Positions 12,632 through 37,044 of a DNA stretch of 42,112 bases are shown one piece after another. The DNA lies in NCBI GenBank assembly GCA_023257795.1, contig JALRBL010000018.1, positions 1 to 42,112 of the forward strand, in the 5' to 3' direction. Within the stretch, counting starts at the first letter, position 1. The number at the start of each line of letters is the position of its first letter. The position numbers were made by a program, and so were the translations under genes. The notes under the pieces are model-generated. The model made no database searches, had not been told where the DNA came from, and saw only the letters and a program-made list of their open reading frames with translations. Origin of the DNA: Gammaproteobacteria bacterium. GTDB taxonomy: Bacteria; Pseudomonadota; Gammaproteobacteria; Magnimaribacterales; D2472.

Positions 12632-12980
12632 GGGGGCGTATTGGGTTCGACATTTGAATTGGAAACCAAACCGCATGCCAAGATTGTGATAACTCTTGTA
12701 AATAAATATCTCAAAAAATTTAGTTGCAGATAACAACTACGCTTTAGCCGCTTAATTGGCTAACCGATATTAGAATTGTCCATGGTTCAAAGTATTGGTC
12801 GCATTCATGGACTGGCAGTATTTTTTTGCCTCAAAAAAAGACTGCGAGATTATTTTGTAGGCTAGCTTGAATCGCCCTGCTCCTCGGGCCGTGAAAGTTA
12901 AACATAAAGAGTAAGCTAAGCATGTAGAAGTAAAGCGGAAAATCAGATGGACGCGGGTTCAATTCCCGCCGCCTCCACCA
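12632..12980 (+). ncRNA. ssrA: tmRNA; tag peptide (A)ADNNYALAA encoded at 12726-12755
   Basis: 5' GGGGGCG pairs with 3' CGCCTCC-ACCA (G3-U70), T-arm GCGGGTTCAATTCCCGC, UAGUU before the GCA resume codon, TATAAT at 12614-12619, adjacent to smpB. Confidence 0.97.
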
Positions 12981-18983: not shown

Positions 18984-21809
18984 ATGTCAAAAATATCCAT
19001 CAAGGGTGCTAGAACCCATAATCTTAAGAATGTTTCTTTGGATATTCCCAGAAACAAACTGGTTGTAATTACTGGTCTATCAGGATCTGGTAAATCGTCT
19101 TTAGCTTTTGACACTATTTATGCCGAGGGACAGAGAAGATATGTAGAGTCTTTATCAGCCTATGCCAGACAGTTTTTATCATTGATGGAAAAACCAGATG
19201 TTGATCAGATTGAAGGCCTATCACCTGCTATCTCAATAGAACAAAAATCAACCTCACATAATCCTAGATCAACTGTTGGAACCGTAACAGAAATCTATGA
19301 CTATTTAAGACTTTTGTATGCAAGGATTGGCTCACCAAGATGCCCCACTCATAATGAAATCCTTGCAGCAAAAACAATATCTCAAGTATCTGATGATATA
19401 TTAAAAATTAAGGAGAGTTCAAAAATAATGATCGTAGCTCCTCTTGTGAGAGAAAAGAAAGGGGAGCATGTTGGTATATTCGAAGAATTAAAAAAAGAGG
19501 GTTTTTTAAGGGTAATTGTTAATGGTATAACTTATCCTATTGAAGAATTTCCTTTGCTTGATAAACAAAAGAAACACAATATTTCTGTTGTTATAGATAG
19601 ATTAATTGTAAAAACTACTGAAGAAAATATCCAAAGATTAGCAGACTCCTTAGAGACTGCCTCTAAATTGAGTAACGGTTTGATTGATATCATCATCTTG
19701 GATGAACAAGATAAGGTTCTTAACTTCTCAACAAACTTTGCTTGCTCAAAATGTGGTTATTCAATAACAGAACTTGAACCCAGAATGTTCTCTTTCAATA
19801 ATCCTATTGGCGCATGCAGTAAATGTGATGGATTGGGAGTAATACAATACTTTGACAAAGAAAAAATGGTGGAAGACCTAGATATTTCGATAAACGAAGG
19901 TGCAATCAAAGGATGGAACAAAAGAAATAGATTTTACTACCATCAACTCAAATGCCTTGCGAACCACTATGGATTCTCATTAGAAACTAAATGGTCAAAT
20001 TTACCTGATGAGATTCGACATATAATCCTATATGGATCTAAAGAGACAATTGATTTTTCTAAACGCTTTTCAAGTGGAAGCAGATTTGTTCGCAAACATA
20101 GATTTGAAGGGGTCATTCCTAATACTGATCGAAGGTATCGAGAATCAGATTCTGACTATATTAAAACAGAGTTAGCTAAAATGTTATCTGAAAGCAGTTG
20201 CGATGAATGTCATGGCTCACGATTAAATGAAGCATCAAGAAATGTACTTATCGATGATGTCCCAATTTATGACATCGTTAGTCTTAAAATTTCAGATGCT
20301 CTTGAATTTATTAAAAATATTAAGCTTCAAGGGTCTCAATTAAAAATTGCAGACAAGATACTTAAAGAAATAAATGATAGATTATCTTTTTTACTAGATG
20401 TCGGCTTAAATTACCTTACCCTGGAAAGGACTGCGGAATCATTATCTGGTGGAGAATCTCAAAGAATCAGGCTAGCAAGTCAAATTGGATCTGGTCTTGT
20501 GGGAGTTACGTATGTTTTAGATGAACCTTCAATTGGTTTACATCAAAAGGATAATGAGAGGCTACTTAAAACTCTAAAACACTTGAGAGATCTTGGAAAT
20601 ACTGTGTTGGTTGTTGAACATGATGAAGAAGCTATTAGGAGCGCTGACCACATTATCGATATTGGGCCTGGAGCTGGAATACACGGGGGTAAGATTTGTG
20701 CTGAGGGCAGTCTAAAAGAAATTCTACAAGCCAAAGAATCAATTACCGCGGAATACCTTAATGGTAAAAGGAAAATTGATAGTAATTTAAATCCAAAGAG
20801 GCCCTCTCAGTTTATTAAAATTTTTGGAGCAGAAGAAAATAACCTTCAAAATGTTAATGTAGAAATACCTATTGGCTTATTTACTTGCATCACAGGAGTT
20901 TCTGGTTCTGGAAAGTCCTCCTTGATAAATCAGAGTCTTATGCCAATGGCTGCTTTTATTCTTAATAAAGCGAAACTTAGCAAGAAAATTAAACTTAAAA
21001 AAATAGAAGGTCTAGAGAACTTGGATAAAGTTATTTCGATTGACCAATCACCAATTGGAAGAACCCCTAGGTCAAATCCAGCTACATATACTGGAGTTTT
21101 TTCTCCTATCAGAGATCTATTTGCACAGTCTGAGGAAGCTAGATCAAGGGGCTACAAACCTGGAAGGTTTAGCTTTAATGTTAAAGGTGGAAGATGTGAA
21201 GCCTGTCAGGGAGATGGCATGATCAAAGTGGAGATGCACTTCCTTGCTGATGTTTACGTTACTTGTGATATTTGTAACAACAGAAGATATAACGATCAAA
21301 CATTAGAAGTTAAATTTAAGGGCAAAAATATCTCTGAAGTATTAAACATGACGGTAGAGGATGCTGTCGAATTCTTTGATGCAGTTCCTGCCATTAAAAC
21401 TAAACTCGCAACACTTCTAGACGTAGGCCTTGGATATATAACCCTAGGGCAATCTGCTACAACCCTATCTGGAGGTGAAGCTCAAAGAGTTAAACTAGCT
21501 AAAGAATTATCTAAAAGAAGTACTGGGAAGACTCTCTATATACTGGATGAGCCTACAACTGGATTGCATTTTTTTGATATTGAGCTTCTGCTTGGAGTTC
21601 TAAAAAGACTCTCTAATCAGGGAAATACAGTAGTCGTTATAGAGCATAATCTTGATGTAATTAAATCAAGTGACTGGATAATTGATCTAGGTCCTGAAGG
21701 GGGCACAGATGGAGGTCAAGTCATTGCTTTTGGAGATCCATCCAAAGTAGCAAAAAATACTAAATCCTATACTGGAAAATATCTTAAGAAATTATTAAAA
21801 AATAATTAG
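18984..21809 (+). CDS. uvrA: Excinuclease ABC subunit A
   Basis: Two ABC ATPase domains ([23 protein letters not shown]) and zinc fingers. Confidence 0.99.
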
Positions 21810-22210
21810 GCTGCGGTTTCTTTTTGATTTGACTCTATGGTTTTATTGTTGAGATCTCTATCAACCCACTCAACATAGGCCACATCAGCCTTATCTCCAT
21901 TTCGAAAACCTGCCTTAATGATCCTCAAATATCCACCATTTCTTTCTTTAGAGCGTACTCCATAGACTGTAAATAATTTTCCTACCGCAGCATCATCTCT
22001 CAATTTATTAAATGCAAGCCTTCTATTAGCAACTGTATCTATCTTCCCAAGATTAATAAGCGGCTCTAAAAAAGATCTAAGCTCTTTTGCCTTAGGAAGT
22101 GTTGTTTTAATTAGCTCATGCTCGATAAGAGCTAAACTAAGATTCTTAAACAATGCCTTTCTGTGCGATGAATTTCTATTAAGTTTTCTTCCTGATTTCC
22201 TATGTCTCAT
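21806..22210 (-). CDS. rplQ: 50S ribosomal protein L17
   Basis: [19 protein letters not shown]. Confidence 0.99.
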
Positions 22211-29264: not shown

Positions 29265-29591
29265 TTAAATCTTCGTTTGATCTGATTTGAACACTCTTAC
29301 TTTTTCGGAACCTTCAACAGAAAACCCTATGCGATCAGCCTTTTTCTGCTTTGGGTTCCAAATGGCAATATTAGAAATATTGATAGAGGATTCTTGTTCG
29401 ACTATTCCGCCAGTAACTCCTAATTGAGGATTTGGTTTGGTATGTTTTTTAACAATATTAACCCCAGTTACTAAGGCTCGATTATTTTTTAAGATCTTTT
29501 GGATAGTTCCTCTTTTTCCAACATCTCTTCCCGCGATAACAACAACTTCATCACCAGTTCTAAGTTTAGTTTTAGTGTGCAAAGTAGACAT
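29265..29591 (-). CDS. rplX: 50S ribosomal protein L24
   Basis: KOW motif [24 protein letters not shown]. Confidence 0.98.
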
Positions 29592-32967: not shown

Positions 32968-33263
32968 TAGTTAATGCCCTCAAATTGAATTTGAGATCCT
33001 TCTTGAAGAGCGACAATTGCCTTTTTATAGTCGGATCGTTTGTACTTCCCAAACTTGTTACGTTTTGTTTTTCCTTTTGAGATACATGTGGTGACAGAGC
33101 GAACTTTGACATTGAATAATGACTCAACTGCTTTCTTAATTTCAAGTTTATTTGCATCCAAGCTAACCTTGAATGCAACCTGATTAAGGCTAGAAGCAAG
33201 CATGCTGCTCTTCTCAGTAACTAAAGGAGCTTTAATAATTGTAAGAAGTCTTTCTCGATTCAC
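32967..33263 (-). CDS. rplW: 50S ribosomal protein L23 (probable GTG start at 33263 overlapping the rplD stop)
   Basis: [22 protein letters not shown]; GAGGAG 8 nt upstream of GTG. Confidence 0.96.
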
Positions 33264-33874
33264 TTCATCCACTCCTCAATTAATTTAAAAGCCTCTGGAG
33301 TAACTGCAACTCTCTCAGATCTAAGAAGTAAAACTGGGTTAATTTCTTTAACAGTTACAACTTCAAGATTAGGGATATTTCTCGCAGACAGATATAAGTT
33401 TGTATCTAACTCATCGACAATTATGAGGGTATTTTCGAGTTGAAGCTCTTTAAGATACGATGCCATCAGCTTAGTTTTAGGTTCTGATAACTTTGGAGTT
33501 GATATTGCTAGCAATCTTTCTTGCCTAAGCAATTCAGATAATATAGATCTGATAGCGGCTCTATACATTTTTTTGTTAACTTTTTTAGAATAATCTCTTG
33601 GTGATGAAGCAAATGCTACTCCGCCACCTCTCCACAAAGGGCTTCTAATAGTTCCAGCCCGGGCTCTGCCTGTTCCTTTTTGTCTAAAAGGTTTTTTACC
33701 GCCGCCTCTTACATCGGATCTAGTCTTTTGACTATGACTTCCTTGTCTAGCACCAGATAAAAAAGATGTAACAACTTGATGAACTAAATCAGAGTTGTAC
33801 TCATTGGAAAATATTTCATCAGAAATTTGAATATTTTGTTTTGCGCTATCTTGTGAAAGTAAATCTAATTTCAT
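33260..33874 (-). CDS. rplD: 50S ribosomal protein L4
   Basis: KPFRQKGTGRARAG. Confidence 0.99.
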   Translation of the reverse strand: MKLDLLSQDSAKQNIQISDEIFSNEYNSDLVHQVVTSFLSGARQGSHSQKTRSDVRGGGKKPFRQKGTGRARAGTIRSPLWRGGGVAFASSPRDYSKKVNKKMYRAAIRSILSELLRQERLLAISTPKLSEPKTKLMASYLKELQLENTLIIVDELDTNLYLSARNIPNLEVVTVKEINPVLLLRSERVAVTPEAFKLIEEWMK

Positions 33875-34509
33875 GATTGTGCCTTTTTAACAGCTGGTAT
33901 TACTCTAACAAGTGATCCTGTTGCGCCAGGGATAGCTCCCTTTACAAATAAAAGGTTGTTTTCTAAATCAGCCTTCACTAATTCTAGGCTTTGGACAGTT
34001 TTCTGCACATTGCCCATTTGACCTGACATTTTTTTGCCTTTCCATACTCTGCCAGGAGTTTGACATTGACCTGTGGAACCATGGGCTCTATGTGATAAAG
34101 AGTTACCGTGTGTTGCATCCTGCATTCTGAAGTTATGACGCTTGATTACTCCAGCATAGCCCTTACCTTTAGAGGTTCCAGTTACATCGACATGTGTAAT
34201 ATTTTCAAAAATACTTACATCCATGTGTTTGCCTTGAGGGAATTGATCAAGATTTTCGGTTTTAAACTCTACTAGGTAACCTGGGTCCAAATCAACCTTT
34301 TTAAAAAACTCTTGCTGCGCTTTGTTTAAAGTAGCTTTTCTAAAATAATTTTTTGAAATTAGAACTGATGAATAGCCATCATTTTCAACAGTTTTATGAG
34401 AAGCTACAAAATTTCCAGCTACAGAAATTACAGACACTGGTATGGAGGTTCCATCTTCTTGAAAGACTCTGGACATCCCAGCTTTTTTTCCAATTAAGCC
34501 TATGCTCAA
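33871..34509 (-). CDS. rplC: 50S ribosomal protein L3 (TTG start)
   Basis: GKKAGMS, SKGKG, HGNSLSHRA; AGGAG 6 nt upstream of TTG. Confidence 0.99.
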   Translation of the reverse strand: MSIGLIGKKAGMSRVFQEDGTSIPVSVISVAGNFVASHKTVENDGYSSVLISKNYFRKATLNKAQQEFFKKVDLDPGYLVEFKTENLDQFPQGKHMDVSIFENITHVDVTGTSKGKGYAGVIKRHNFRMQDATHGNSLSHRAHGSTGQCQTPGRVWKGKKMSGQMGNVQKTVQSLELVKADLENNLLFVKGAIPGATGSLVRVIPAVKKAQS

Positions 34510-34520
34510 TTTATACTCCT

Positions 34521-34558
34521 TACGGGGCTCTAACCCTCTATGGCCGCTTATGGCGTTA
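34521..34558 (-). promoter_or_regulatory. Candidate cis-regulatory RNA mimicking 23S rRNA H19-H20 (putative L4-binding operator)
   Basis: UAACGC-CAUAA-GCG-GCCAUAGA-GGG-UUAGAGC-CCC-GUA, a GC-rich island abutting the rplC SD; resemblance to 23S nt ~299-340 judged from memory. Confidence 0.6.
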
Positions 34559-34870
34559 TTAACTTAAACTTATTTGGACATCCACGCCTGATGCAAGATC
34601 AAGCTTCATTAGAGCATCAACCGTTTTATCGGTTGGCTTTAGGATATCCAACAACCTTTTGTATGTTCTAATCTCATATTGATCTCTTGCATCTTTGTCT
34701 TTATGAGGAGAAATCAATATCGTAGTTTTTTCTTTTTTTACAGGAAGCGGTATTGGACCTTTGATCACTGCTCCAGTTTTCTTTGCAGTTTCAACAATCA
34801 ATTTTGTGGAAGAGTCAATTAGACGGTAGTCAAAAGCCTTGAGTCTAATTCTAATTGCTTGGTTTTCCAT
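34559..34870 (-). CDS. rpsJ: 30S ribosomal protein S10 (NusE)
   Basis: [24 protein letters not shown]. Confidence 0.99.
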
Positions 34871-34904
34871 CTTGCTTCTTGTCTTATATATTTAAAGGTT
34901 GCGT

Positions 34905-34934
34905 ATTCTATGCTTCAACAAAGGCTTATGTCAA
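34905..34934 (-). promoter_or_regulatory. Sigma70 promoter of the S10 cluster
   Basis: Minus strand TTGACA-N18-TAGAAT with A/T tract upstream. Confidence 0.8.
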
Positions 34935-34950
34935 TAAAAAATAAGGGTTT

Positions 34951-37044
34951 CTAAGCAGTTTTCAGTTCTTGCGCTATGTTGTTTGGAACTTCAGCATATT
35001 TAGTAAATTCCATTGAGAAGCTAGCTCTTCCTTGAGTAGCTGATCTAACATCAGTGGCATAACCAAACATCTCTGATAGAGGAACTTCAGAACGCACGAC
35101 TTTACCCGAAGGTATTTCATCCATTCCAAGAATAATACCTCTTCTTCTATTCAAGTCACCAACAACATCACCCATAAACTCTTCCGGTGTGACAACCTCA
35201 ACTTTCATAACAGGCTCTAGTAAAACTGGATTTGCTTTGAGGGCACCTTCTTTAAGAGCCATAGAACCAGCTATTTTAAATGCCATTTCACTTGAATCAA
35301 CATCATGGAATGATCCATCAAAAAGAGTAGCTTTGAGAGCAAGCAAAGGATAGCCTGCGATCACGCCATTTTGCATTTGTTCTTGGATTCCCTTGTTAAC
35401 AGCTGGAATATATTCTTTTGGAATTACGCCTCCAACTATAGCATCAACAAATTCATATTCATCATCTAAACCAAGAGGTTCTAGCTTAAGCCAAACATGG
35501 CCATATTGGCCTCTTCCACCACTTTGTCTAACAAACTTACCTTCAATTTCAACAGATTTTTTTATAGTTTCTCTGTATGCAACTTGAGGTCTACCAATAT
35601 TTGCCTCAACAGAAAACTCTCTTCTCATTCTGTCAACTAGTACGTCTAAATGAAGCTCGCCCATTCCAGAAATAATTGTCTGACCAGACTCTTCATCACT
35701 AGTAACTCTAAAAGAAGGATCTTCTTGAGCAAGTTTTCCTAAGGCAATAGACATCTTTTCTTGATCAGCTTTGGATTTTGGTTCAACGGCAACTGAAATT
35801 ACGGGTTCAGGAAAATCCATTTTTTCAAGGATAATTTGATTATTTGGATCGCATAGTGTATCCCCGGTAGTGATATCTTTTAAGCCAATGCAAGCAGCGA
35901 TATCACCAGCTCTAATTTCTTTAATCTCGTTACGATTATTGGCATGCATTTGTACCATTCTTCCAATTCTTTCTTTTTTATCTTTAGTTGAATTTACTGC
36001 CTGATCTCCAACTTTAACAACACCAGAATAAACCCTTATAAACGTTAGAGTGCCAACAAATGGGTCTGTGGCAATCTTAAAAGCAAGAGCTGAAAATGGT
36101 TCATTGTCCGAAGATGATCTTTGAGAAGTTTTTTCTTCTTTTCCAGGAATAATACCTTTAATTGCTTCAACTTCATCAGGAGCTGGTAAATAATCAATCA
36201 CAGCATCTAATACTGCTTGGACGCCTTTATTTTTAAAAGCTGATCCACAGAATGCTGGAACTATTTCATTGGCAATAGTTCTAATGCGAATGCCTTTTTT
36301 GATGTCATCTATGGATAAATCTCCTGACTCAAGATATTTATCCATGAGCTCTTCATTTGCCTCTGCTGCAGATTCGATCATTTCTTCTCTTAGCTTTTGA
36401 CATGTAGCAATCAAATGCTCTGGAATATCTTTTGCTTCAAAAGTTAACCCTTGATCATCTTCATTCCAATAAATGGCCTTCATCTTAATAAGATCAACAA
36501 CACCCTTAAAATCTTCTTCGGCACCGATGTTATATTGCATAGGGACAACATTTGCCTTCAGCCTATCTTTGATCTGTTGAGTCACTCTTGAAAAATCTGC
36601 TCCAGCTCTATCCATTTTATTTACGAATACAATTCTTGGAACTTTATATCTATTTGCTTGACGCCAAACTGTTTCAGATTGAGGTTCGACACCTGAAGTA
36701 CCACAAAAGACAACTACCGCTCCATCAAGTACTCTTAAAGATCGCTCTACTTCAATGGTAAAATCTACGTGACCGGGAGTATCAATGATATTAATTCTAT
36801 GCTGAGGATATTGTTGCTCCATACCACTCCAAAAACATGTGGTTGCGGCAGAAGTAATAGTGATACCTCTTTCTTGTTCTTGCTCCATCCAATCCATGAC
36901 AGCAGCACCATCATGTACTTCACCAATTTTGTGAGACAACCCTGTATAAAATAGAACTCTTTCAGTGGTGGTAGTTTTCCCAGCGTCAACGTGGGCACAA
37001 ATACCAATATTTCTATACTTATTTAGTTCGGTTTCTCTAGGCAT
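34951..37044 (-). CDS. fusA: Elongation factor G
   Basis: [34 protein letters not shown]. Confidence 0.99.

Follow-up and report, generated by a model that had tools for sequence, protein, structure and literature searches.

Control of the S10 operon outside the enterics has been an open question since the L4-dependent leader of E. coli was found not to be conserved in Pseudomonas, uL4 being the known regulator of this operon in E. coli (PMC10931766, section 3.3). In the window, by which the whole analysed stretch of 42,112 nt (contig JALRBL010000018.1) is meant, the corresponding genes follow each other almost without gaps, with the exception of one spacer between rpsJ and rplC. This raises the question of whether the spacer carries a control site and, if so, which protein would act on it.

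Gene array and position of the spacer

The genes rpoC, rpsL, rpsG, fusA, rpsJ, then the spacer, rplC ... rplE ... rpoA and rplQ are found in this order, all on the minus strand (Table 1). The spacer has the length and sequence given in the original prediction and reads, on the mRNA strand, UAA, CGC-CAUAA-GCG, GC, C-AUA-G, A, GGG-UUAGAGC-CCC, GUA, AGGAG, UAUAAA and UUG. The other 26 gaps from rplC to rplQ range from -13 to +20 nt based on ORF coordinates, as expected from the claim that most spacers of the cluster are short, and the rpsJ-rplC spacer is the sole long gap within the 28-gene ribosomal array. Its description as GC-rich holds relative to the surroundings (57% GC in the element core versus 18-48% in surrounding 50-nt windows) and not in absolute terms. 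The fold of this single spacer sequence is not unusually stable (z -1.21; not significant).

No tuf gene is located between fusA and rpsJ, and the 80-nt gap at this place (34871-34950) contains a near-consensus promoter-like site. If transcription starts from this site, the rpsJ leader would be about 28 nt long, which fits the short leader proposed earlier.

Fourteen metatranscriptome runs contain the stretch, and contigs cross the spacer in two of four compared RNA-library assemblies (X1, X2); since neither a single transcript nor its start or level can be read from such contigs, they are no evidence of co-transcription or regulation. In two of the four assemblies (X3, X7) contig breaks were seen at 34493-34530. 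These are assembly branch points around a 38-nt unitig of higher depth, which is expected if several co-occurring strains share a conserved core.

Table 1. Features of the rpsJ-rplC region and of the ribosomal gene array, in coordinates of the window.
Feature	Position	Strand	Remarks
fusA	34951-37044	-	followed by an 80-nt gap before rpsJ
Promoter-like site TTGACA-18-TAGAAT	34905..34934	-	in the fusA-rpsJ gap; 11/12 versus consensus, consensus scan only
rpsJ (S10)	34559..34870	-	NCBIfam NF001861 and TIGR01049, E 2.6e-45; upstream of the element, outside the proposed control
Whole rpsJ-rplC spacer	34510..34558	-	49 nt
23S H19-H20 mimic core	34521..34557	-	37 nt; model R1 53.9 bits, E 8.6e-14; architecture as in the Rfam LSU consensus
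Junction nucleotides UAA	34556-34558	-	5' of the H19-like hairpin
H19-like hairpin CGC-CAUAA-GCG	34545..34555	-	MFE fold and RNAalifold; both partners vary in 3/3 pairs (72 distinct elements)
Junction strand GC, lone pair C-AUA-G, A	34537..34544	-	corresponds to the first letters of the E. coli 24-mer (gene positions 316-339)
H20-like hairpin GGG-UUAGAGC-CCC	34524..34536	-	loop of 6-8 nt, always U first and AGC last
Junction strand GUA	34521..34523	-	leads back into H18 in 23S
rplC Shine-Dalgarno AGGAG	34516..34520	-	abuts GUA directly
rplC (uL3)	33871..34509	-	TIGR03625, E 7.6e-76; UUG (TTG) start; proposed direct target of repression
rplD (uL4)	33260..33874	-	TIGR03953, E 3.5e-72; start overlaps the rplC stop by 4 nt; gene of the favoured ligand
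rplX (uL24)	29265..29591	-	TIGR01079, E 5.1e-29; 12 genes downstream in the same packed array; gene of the alternative or second ligand
rplQ	21806-22210	-	downstream end of the array

A copy of the 23S rRNA H18/H19/H20 junction and its variation

The Rfam LSU consensus, aligned to the 23S of a relative, reads gAA, H19 hairpin, aC, c-AuA-g, a, gGG-UGAuAGu-CCc, GUA and the 3' strand of H18. The spacer has the same order of parts and the same junction letters; it aligns to H19-H20 of domain I, and the reduced H19 hairpin pointed out in the original prediction stands in its proper place. The 24-mer of E. coli 23S on which that prediction relied is exact in its letters; its position in the annotated gene is 316-339, one nucleotide off the stated 317-340, and the count of 20 identical positions out of 24 was reproduced. 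The claim that the lone pair 319-323 had been swapped to C-G could not be upheld, since C-G is the state of both the bacterial Rfam LSU consensus and the family's own 23S. The element also ends exactly where it had been said to end, at the rplC Shine-Dalgarno sequence ahead of a UUG start, and this start is found in all 23 loci of the window's family that were compared.

A covariance model (R1) was built from 18 distinct spacer cores of the window's family only and was run with filters off over 94.7 kb, comprising the window, five 23S loci of relatives and seven S10 loci without the spacer. Besides the element of the window, the only matches with E < 0.01 were the H19-H20 regions of all five 23S genes (22.6, 20.7, 20.7, 18.0 and 15.9 bits), while the next-best match scored 6.8 bits. 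As a model of spacers alone singles out H19-H20 in each of the five 23S genes, the likeness is beyond chance. Conversely, in Halomonas ventosae the Rfam LSU model matches the spacer between rpsJ and rplC (42.3 bits, E 4.4e-11, model positions 329-385); on the short element of the window it gave no match at E up to 10. A 63-nt stretch of the H. ventosae spacer matches the annotated 23S gene in 5426/5426 E. coli genomes, at a median of 7 places per genome. Compared to the host's own 23S, the spacer is identical at 23/24 positions in H. ventosae and at 33/36 in Salinicola. The spacer is thus confirmed to be an RNA copy of the 23S H18/H19/H20 junction.

The assembly of the window's genome is 85.7% complete and does not contain a 23S gene, so the 23S genes of relatives were used instead. 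The 23S of three members of the family reads GGCCAUAGUAGGUGAUAGCCCUGUA at the H19-H20 site, and the junction strand of the spacer (34537..34544) is identical to GGCCAUAG of the family's own 23S. In this AT-rich 23S (three loci), H20 has drifted to AGG/CCU, whereas the spacer retains GGG/CCC, which indicates that the copy follows the host rRNA only approximately. The spacer is closer to the rRNA of GC-richer relatives than to the 23S of the host family.

The anatomy of the element was compared over 88 distinct elements. The common form in the order holding Halomonas consists of GUG, UAA, CGC-variable hairpin-GCG, GC, C(A/G)UAG, N, GGG, U..AGC, CCC, GUA and CAC, and continues with GAGG 2-8 nt past CAC and then AUG. 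The form of the window's family has UAACGC..GCGGCCAUAGAGGG..CCCCGUA in common with it, but lacks GUG/CAC. At this place most elements of the family carry runs of U and A, and in the window's genus there is nothing that pairs. The two forms look homologous, the one of the window's family being apparently reduced. The fullest form was found in Halomonadaceae and has UAGUG, GAA, a 23S-like H19 with the loop CUGGAAAG, and then CACUA.

The junction strand is invariant in 19 spacers of the window's family, and all 88 elements have G[C/U]-C[A/G]UAG, AA before the hairpin and a first GGAG, GAGG or AGGA beginning 0-12 nt after GUA. The H19-like hairpin has a length of 8-48 nt and is closed by at least three pairs in 83/88 elements, compared to 27% of shuffled upstream sequences. 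An H18-like stem of at least three pairs (variants GUG/CAC, UUU/AAA and AUG/CAU) is present in 71/88; the control for this stem is weak, as sliding the partner by -2 gives 52/88, because GUGUAA and GUACAC allow two registers. In the window's genus (L001, L002) no contiguous H18-like pairs were found, so that the junction would be open there.

Covariation was examined in a model-fitted alignment of 88 matches, which correspond to 72 distinct rows. In this alignment 99.2% of the cells pair, compared to at most 56% for slid partners, and the covariation score was reached by none of 500 shuffles. All three basal pairs of the H19-like stem have changes in both partners (C-G to U-A in 6 rows, G-C to C-G in 2, C-G to A-U or U-A in 5), and RNAalifold recovered both hairpins from the window's family alone. 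The search for conservation and compensatory changes in relatives, one of the checks suggested at the outset, therefore found the element in the same place with such changes in its hairpin. The GGG/CCC stem of H20, correctly predicted to be kept, and the C-G lone pair are invariant in 72/72 distinct rows, hence no covariation support comes from them. The two partners of the tertiary pairs, the GC before the lone pair and the terminal GC of the H20 loop, are both present in all elements and almost invariant, likewise without covariation either way.

An RNA structure that acts without a protein, be it a processing or stability element or an uncoupler of rpsJ and rplC translation, whose rRNA likeness would be incidental or due to captured rDNA, was also considered and appears quite improbable. 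Two observations fit it. In an alternative RNAalifold structure the CC of GGCC (34542-34543) pairs with the GG of the Shine-Dalgarno sequence (34518-34519) and masks it; these columns are invariant, so covariation cannot judge this pairing. Further, many Halomonas-order spacers (L243, L245, L246, L248, L255, L218 and others) have a GC-rich hairpin between the rpsJ stop and the mimic, in some cases with a terminator-like U run, which is absent from SAR86. However, across two orders the helices vary freely but the unpaired nucleotides of the junction and both ends of the H20 loop stay the same, which fits a surface recognized by a protein rather than a generic hairpin, and the elements are identical to the rRNA protein site at 19-23 of 24 positions.

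Distribution of the element

Within the window's family the element was present in all 23 loci compared, from 10 genera, with spacers of 49-65 nt. R1 matches of 48-62 bits were obtained in 115 of the 139 genomes of this family; of the others, mostly incomplete assemblies, 7 gave only a 23S-type match of about 24 bits and 17 gave none. Records with the same element are titled SAR86 cluster bacteria. In seven loci from two sister families the element is absent and the rpsJ-rplC gaps measure -2 to 11 nt. It is also absent in one genome of a third sister family, with a raw gap of 12 nt, which amounts to 0/8 over the three sister families.

In the order holding Halomonas, the best 40 R1 matches were examined and all 40 were situated between rpsJ and rplC. 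Of the 141 genomes of this order in which rpsJ was matched, at least 83 also give an R1 match at 40-170 nt downstream from that gene, the distances here and in the class-wide sample being compared by eye from coordinates. A pattern scan over all species, which required GGAG and therefore under-samples and cannot show absence, gave 62 sites between rpsJ and rplC among the 120 matches listed, the other 58 being real 23S genes or other sites. Among the matches listed, 36/62 were of the Halomonadaceae type (Halomonas, Vreelandella, Salinicola, Chromohalobacter, Kushneria and others by record title), 20/62 of the SAR86 type, 3/62 of the type of records titled Luminiphilus and Alteromonadaceae, 2/62 of the type of a record titled Pseudomonadales MAG, and 1/62 of another type (L130).

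A class-wide sample comprised 151 families with one genome each, and rpsJ could be located in 130 of these genomes, counting that of the window; the unpublished genomes G193 and G294 are part of this sample and were counted only among the negatives. No R1 match beside rpsJ was found in one genome each of the 129 other gammaproteobacterial families, and none of the 60 long rpsJ-rplC spacers of the sample contained the mimic. The element is thus common in two lineages and not general to Gammaproteobacteria. The expectation that the motif may be widespread, with a similar sequence in Pseudomonas, is in line with the frequent fuller form in the Halomonas order. The absence of the element from the sister SAR86 families, and the lack of a match beside rpsJ in the genomes sampled from these 129 families, indicate that it is dispensable. 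One genome of the sample (G182) gave 14 R1 matches at E up to 1, far above any other genome, which may represent a repeat resembling part of the model.

In view of this distribution, it is extremely improbable that the spacer is merely left over from a piece of rDNA that entered the operon and has no function. Such an origin would be in line with the roughly 80% identity to 23S that the Halomonadaceae copy shows over 55-58 nt. However, one fixed site is occupied in 83 or more genomes of one order and in 115 of another family, with compensatory changes. The genome that keeps the element is moreover streamlined (1.27 Mb), and none of its other gaps exceeds 20 nt; core divergence at a neutral rate was not seen among close relatives.

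A different conserved hairpin was observed just 5' of the rplC Shine-Dalgarno sequence in 16 of the 60 long rpsJ-rplC spacers, in other gammaproteobacterial families (L156, L159, L160, L167, L173, L175, L177, L178, L195, L197, L198, L203, L207, L209, L212 and L214). Here a covarying stem of 4-7 bp closes the loop G-UCAAUCG(A/U)AAU, which is similar to the 23S sequence near gene position 220, where relatives read AAAUCAAUUGAGAUUCC. No Rfam match was found for this second motif at E up to 1. It may be an unrelated second mimic of domain I at the same site.

Proposed control by uL4 and relation to known operators

The proteins uL4 and uL24, which join the ribosome early in assembly, have their primary binding site on 23S rRNA at the H18/H19/H20 junction. 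According to PMC6426284, a fragment with this junction (23S nt 281-359) is bound by these two proteins only, in line with the ligand pair named in the original prediction. Based on this and on the position of the copy, it is reasonably probable that the element serves as a translational operator for uL4, perhaps together with uL24, by which rplC and the coupled downstream genes would be repressed and S10 would be exempt. Junction strands and H20 loop ends that stay constant while the helices vary are what one would expect of a surface contacted by a protein, and the Shine-Dalgarno distance is suited to covering the rplC ribosome-binding site.

In the mechanism that we propose, the spacer RNA would fold into a small replica of the three-way junction, and uL4 in excess over free 23S rRNA would bind this copy, possibly together with uL24. 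The bound protein could then block access of the 30S subunit to rplC, where the Shine-Dalgarno sequence starts 0-12 nt past the last junction nucleotide and the UUG start is weak. Repression would pass to rplD and the later genes through translational coupling. We infer this coupling, like the ligand and the repression itself, from the sequence: stops and starts overlap or lie a few nucleotides apart, as for rplC and rplD with their overlap of 4 nt. The gene of S10 (NusE) is situated upstream of the site and would escape the control.

The choice of uL4 is favoured by the location of rplD as the second cistron after the site and by the role of uL4 in the E. coli S10 operon. In addition, the H19 loop and the H18 strands, which were dropped in SAR86, are ascribed mainly to uL24. 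L4 presumably also cross-links to 23S near 320-325.

The same operator might instead respond to uL24 alone, sensing the free initiator of 50S assembly and controlling the whole gapless train of S10-spc-alpha genes. According to PMC6426284, the close contacts of uL24 to the H18-H20 fragment outnumber those of uL4, and both strands of H18 are held by it; many Halomonas-order elements retain a 23S-like H19 loop (e.g. UGGAAU, UGAAAU), and rplX belongs to the same array, with all 12 gaps from rplC to rplX, rplN-rplX included, of at most 11 nt. However, rplX is 12 cistrons away from the site, no autoregulation by uL24 is reported in the available text of the review PMC10931766, and the parts that uL24 is said to hold were lost in SAR86 elements (H19 loop) and in the window's genus (H18 strands as well). 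On balance, uL24 as the sole ligand is unlikely.

Another reading is that uL4 and uL24 bind cooperatively as on 23S, so that the element would report a joint excess of the two earliest binders of domain I. Both proteins stabilize the same junction intermediate, more strongly together than alone (PMC6426284), and none of the three junction strands varies in the mimic. Since no precedent for such a two-protein operator was found in the available text of the review and survey literature, we regard this as rather unlikely. Sequence analysis cannot separate it from the main reading with uL4. An extension of this idea, for which our expectation is similarly low, would make the element a two-protein sensor: a minimal replica of the 50S-assembly nucleus, clamped cooperatively by uL4 and uL24, which would tie S10-spc-alpha translation to how much nascent 23S domain I is available. 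This could be an older gammaproteobacterial solution that persists in the order of Halomonas and in a single SAR86 family; enterics would have replaced it by the attenuator leader, and other families by the second hairpin with its domain-I-like loop G-UCAAUCG(A/U)AAU.

With regard to the preferred reading, control by uL4, one of the closest known systems is the E. coli S10 leader, the L4-interacting RNA (PMC3616713). It acts on the same operon and probably has two things in common with the mimic, uL4 as the regulator and feedback through a protein that binds 23S as a primary binder; for uL4 this leader is in competition with a 23S fragment (PMC10931766). As described in PMC3616713, this leader is located upstream of rpsJ, has five hairpins and an intrinsic terminator, acts on transcription and translation, and has S10 under its control. 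The element of the window, on the other hand, follows rpsJ, is a literal copy of the rRNA site, and lacks a terminator-like site, and the rpsJ leader would be only about 28 nt long. Two hallmarks of an E. coli-type S10 leader are missing here, as the element is located downstream of rpsJ and no terminator-like sites were detected at 33800-35100 of the window.

In its arrangement the element resembles the S8 operator of the spc operon at rplE, which is likewise internal, lies at the initiation region of a downstream cistron, closely mimics rRNA and spreads repression by coupling (PMC10931766, section 2.6). The differences are that the S8 operator involves uS8, 16S h21 and another cistron, and that the E. 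coli genes upstream of the S8 site are retro-regulated (PMC10931766). With the 23S junction itself (nt 281-359; PMC6426284, RF02541) the mimic shares (U/G)AA, a hairpin, GC, C-AUA-G, N, GGG-U..AGC-CCC and GUA, and in most lineages also a putative H18-like stem, there of 3-4 bp. In contrast to 23S, H19 is shortened in SAR86 to 3-4 bp that close a loop of arbitrary sequence and elsewhere extends to up to 48 nt, H18 has 0-4 bp instead of a long helix, and a Shine-Dalgarno sequence follows. The L4 r-leader candidate of Archaeoglobi (PMC7247131, Table 1) is also a candidate uL4-responsive motif, located upstream of rplC-rplD-rplW-rplB; it is archaeal, was graded '?' by Eckert and Weinberg 2020, and shows no likeness to the mimic as described in PMC7247131.

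Database searches with Rfam 15 returned nothing on the spacer. At the gathering score only a tmRNA was found in the whole window, a one-piece gene at 12632-12980 on the plus strand (RF00023, 178.3 bits). A search of 34400-35000 at E up to 10 gave nothing on the spacer, and 18 related loci gave no matches at E up to 1. No existing family therefore covers the element, as far as the window and these loci are concerned, which settles the question of an Rfam precedent that had been raised with the prediction. A search of openly available full texts yielded no description of the element, and it does not appear in the available text of the survey of E. coli-type regulators (PMC3616713), the 20-leader paper (PMC7247131) or the 2024 review (PMC10931766).

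Three traits of known rRNA-mimic operators were found here as well: the element is located at the ribosome-binding site of the cistron presumed to be regulated, it looks like the site on rRNA of proteins whose genes belong to this operon, and it is conserved across species, with covariation in the H19-like stem and suggestive covariation in the H18-like stem. It is a new RNA motif, a putative member of the well-known rRNA-mimic operators in ribosomal-protein operons. Its location is unusual and its mimicry unusually literal, and it most likely represents an undescribed feedback switch for the main ribosomal-protein operon.

The motif offers a concrete and widely distributed candidate for control of the S10 operon, from which S10/NusE would be exempt by position. 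With 37 nt it provides a model RNA for recognition by uL4 and uL24, and it would make a new Rfam family. As the only long gap in the 28-gene array, the rpsJ-rplC element also shows what a streamlined marine genome retains.
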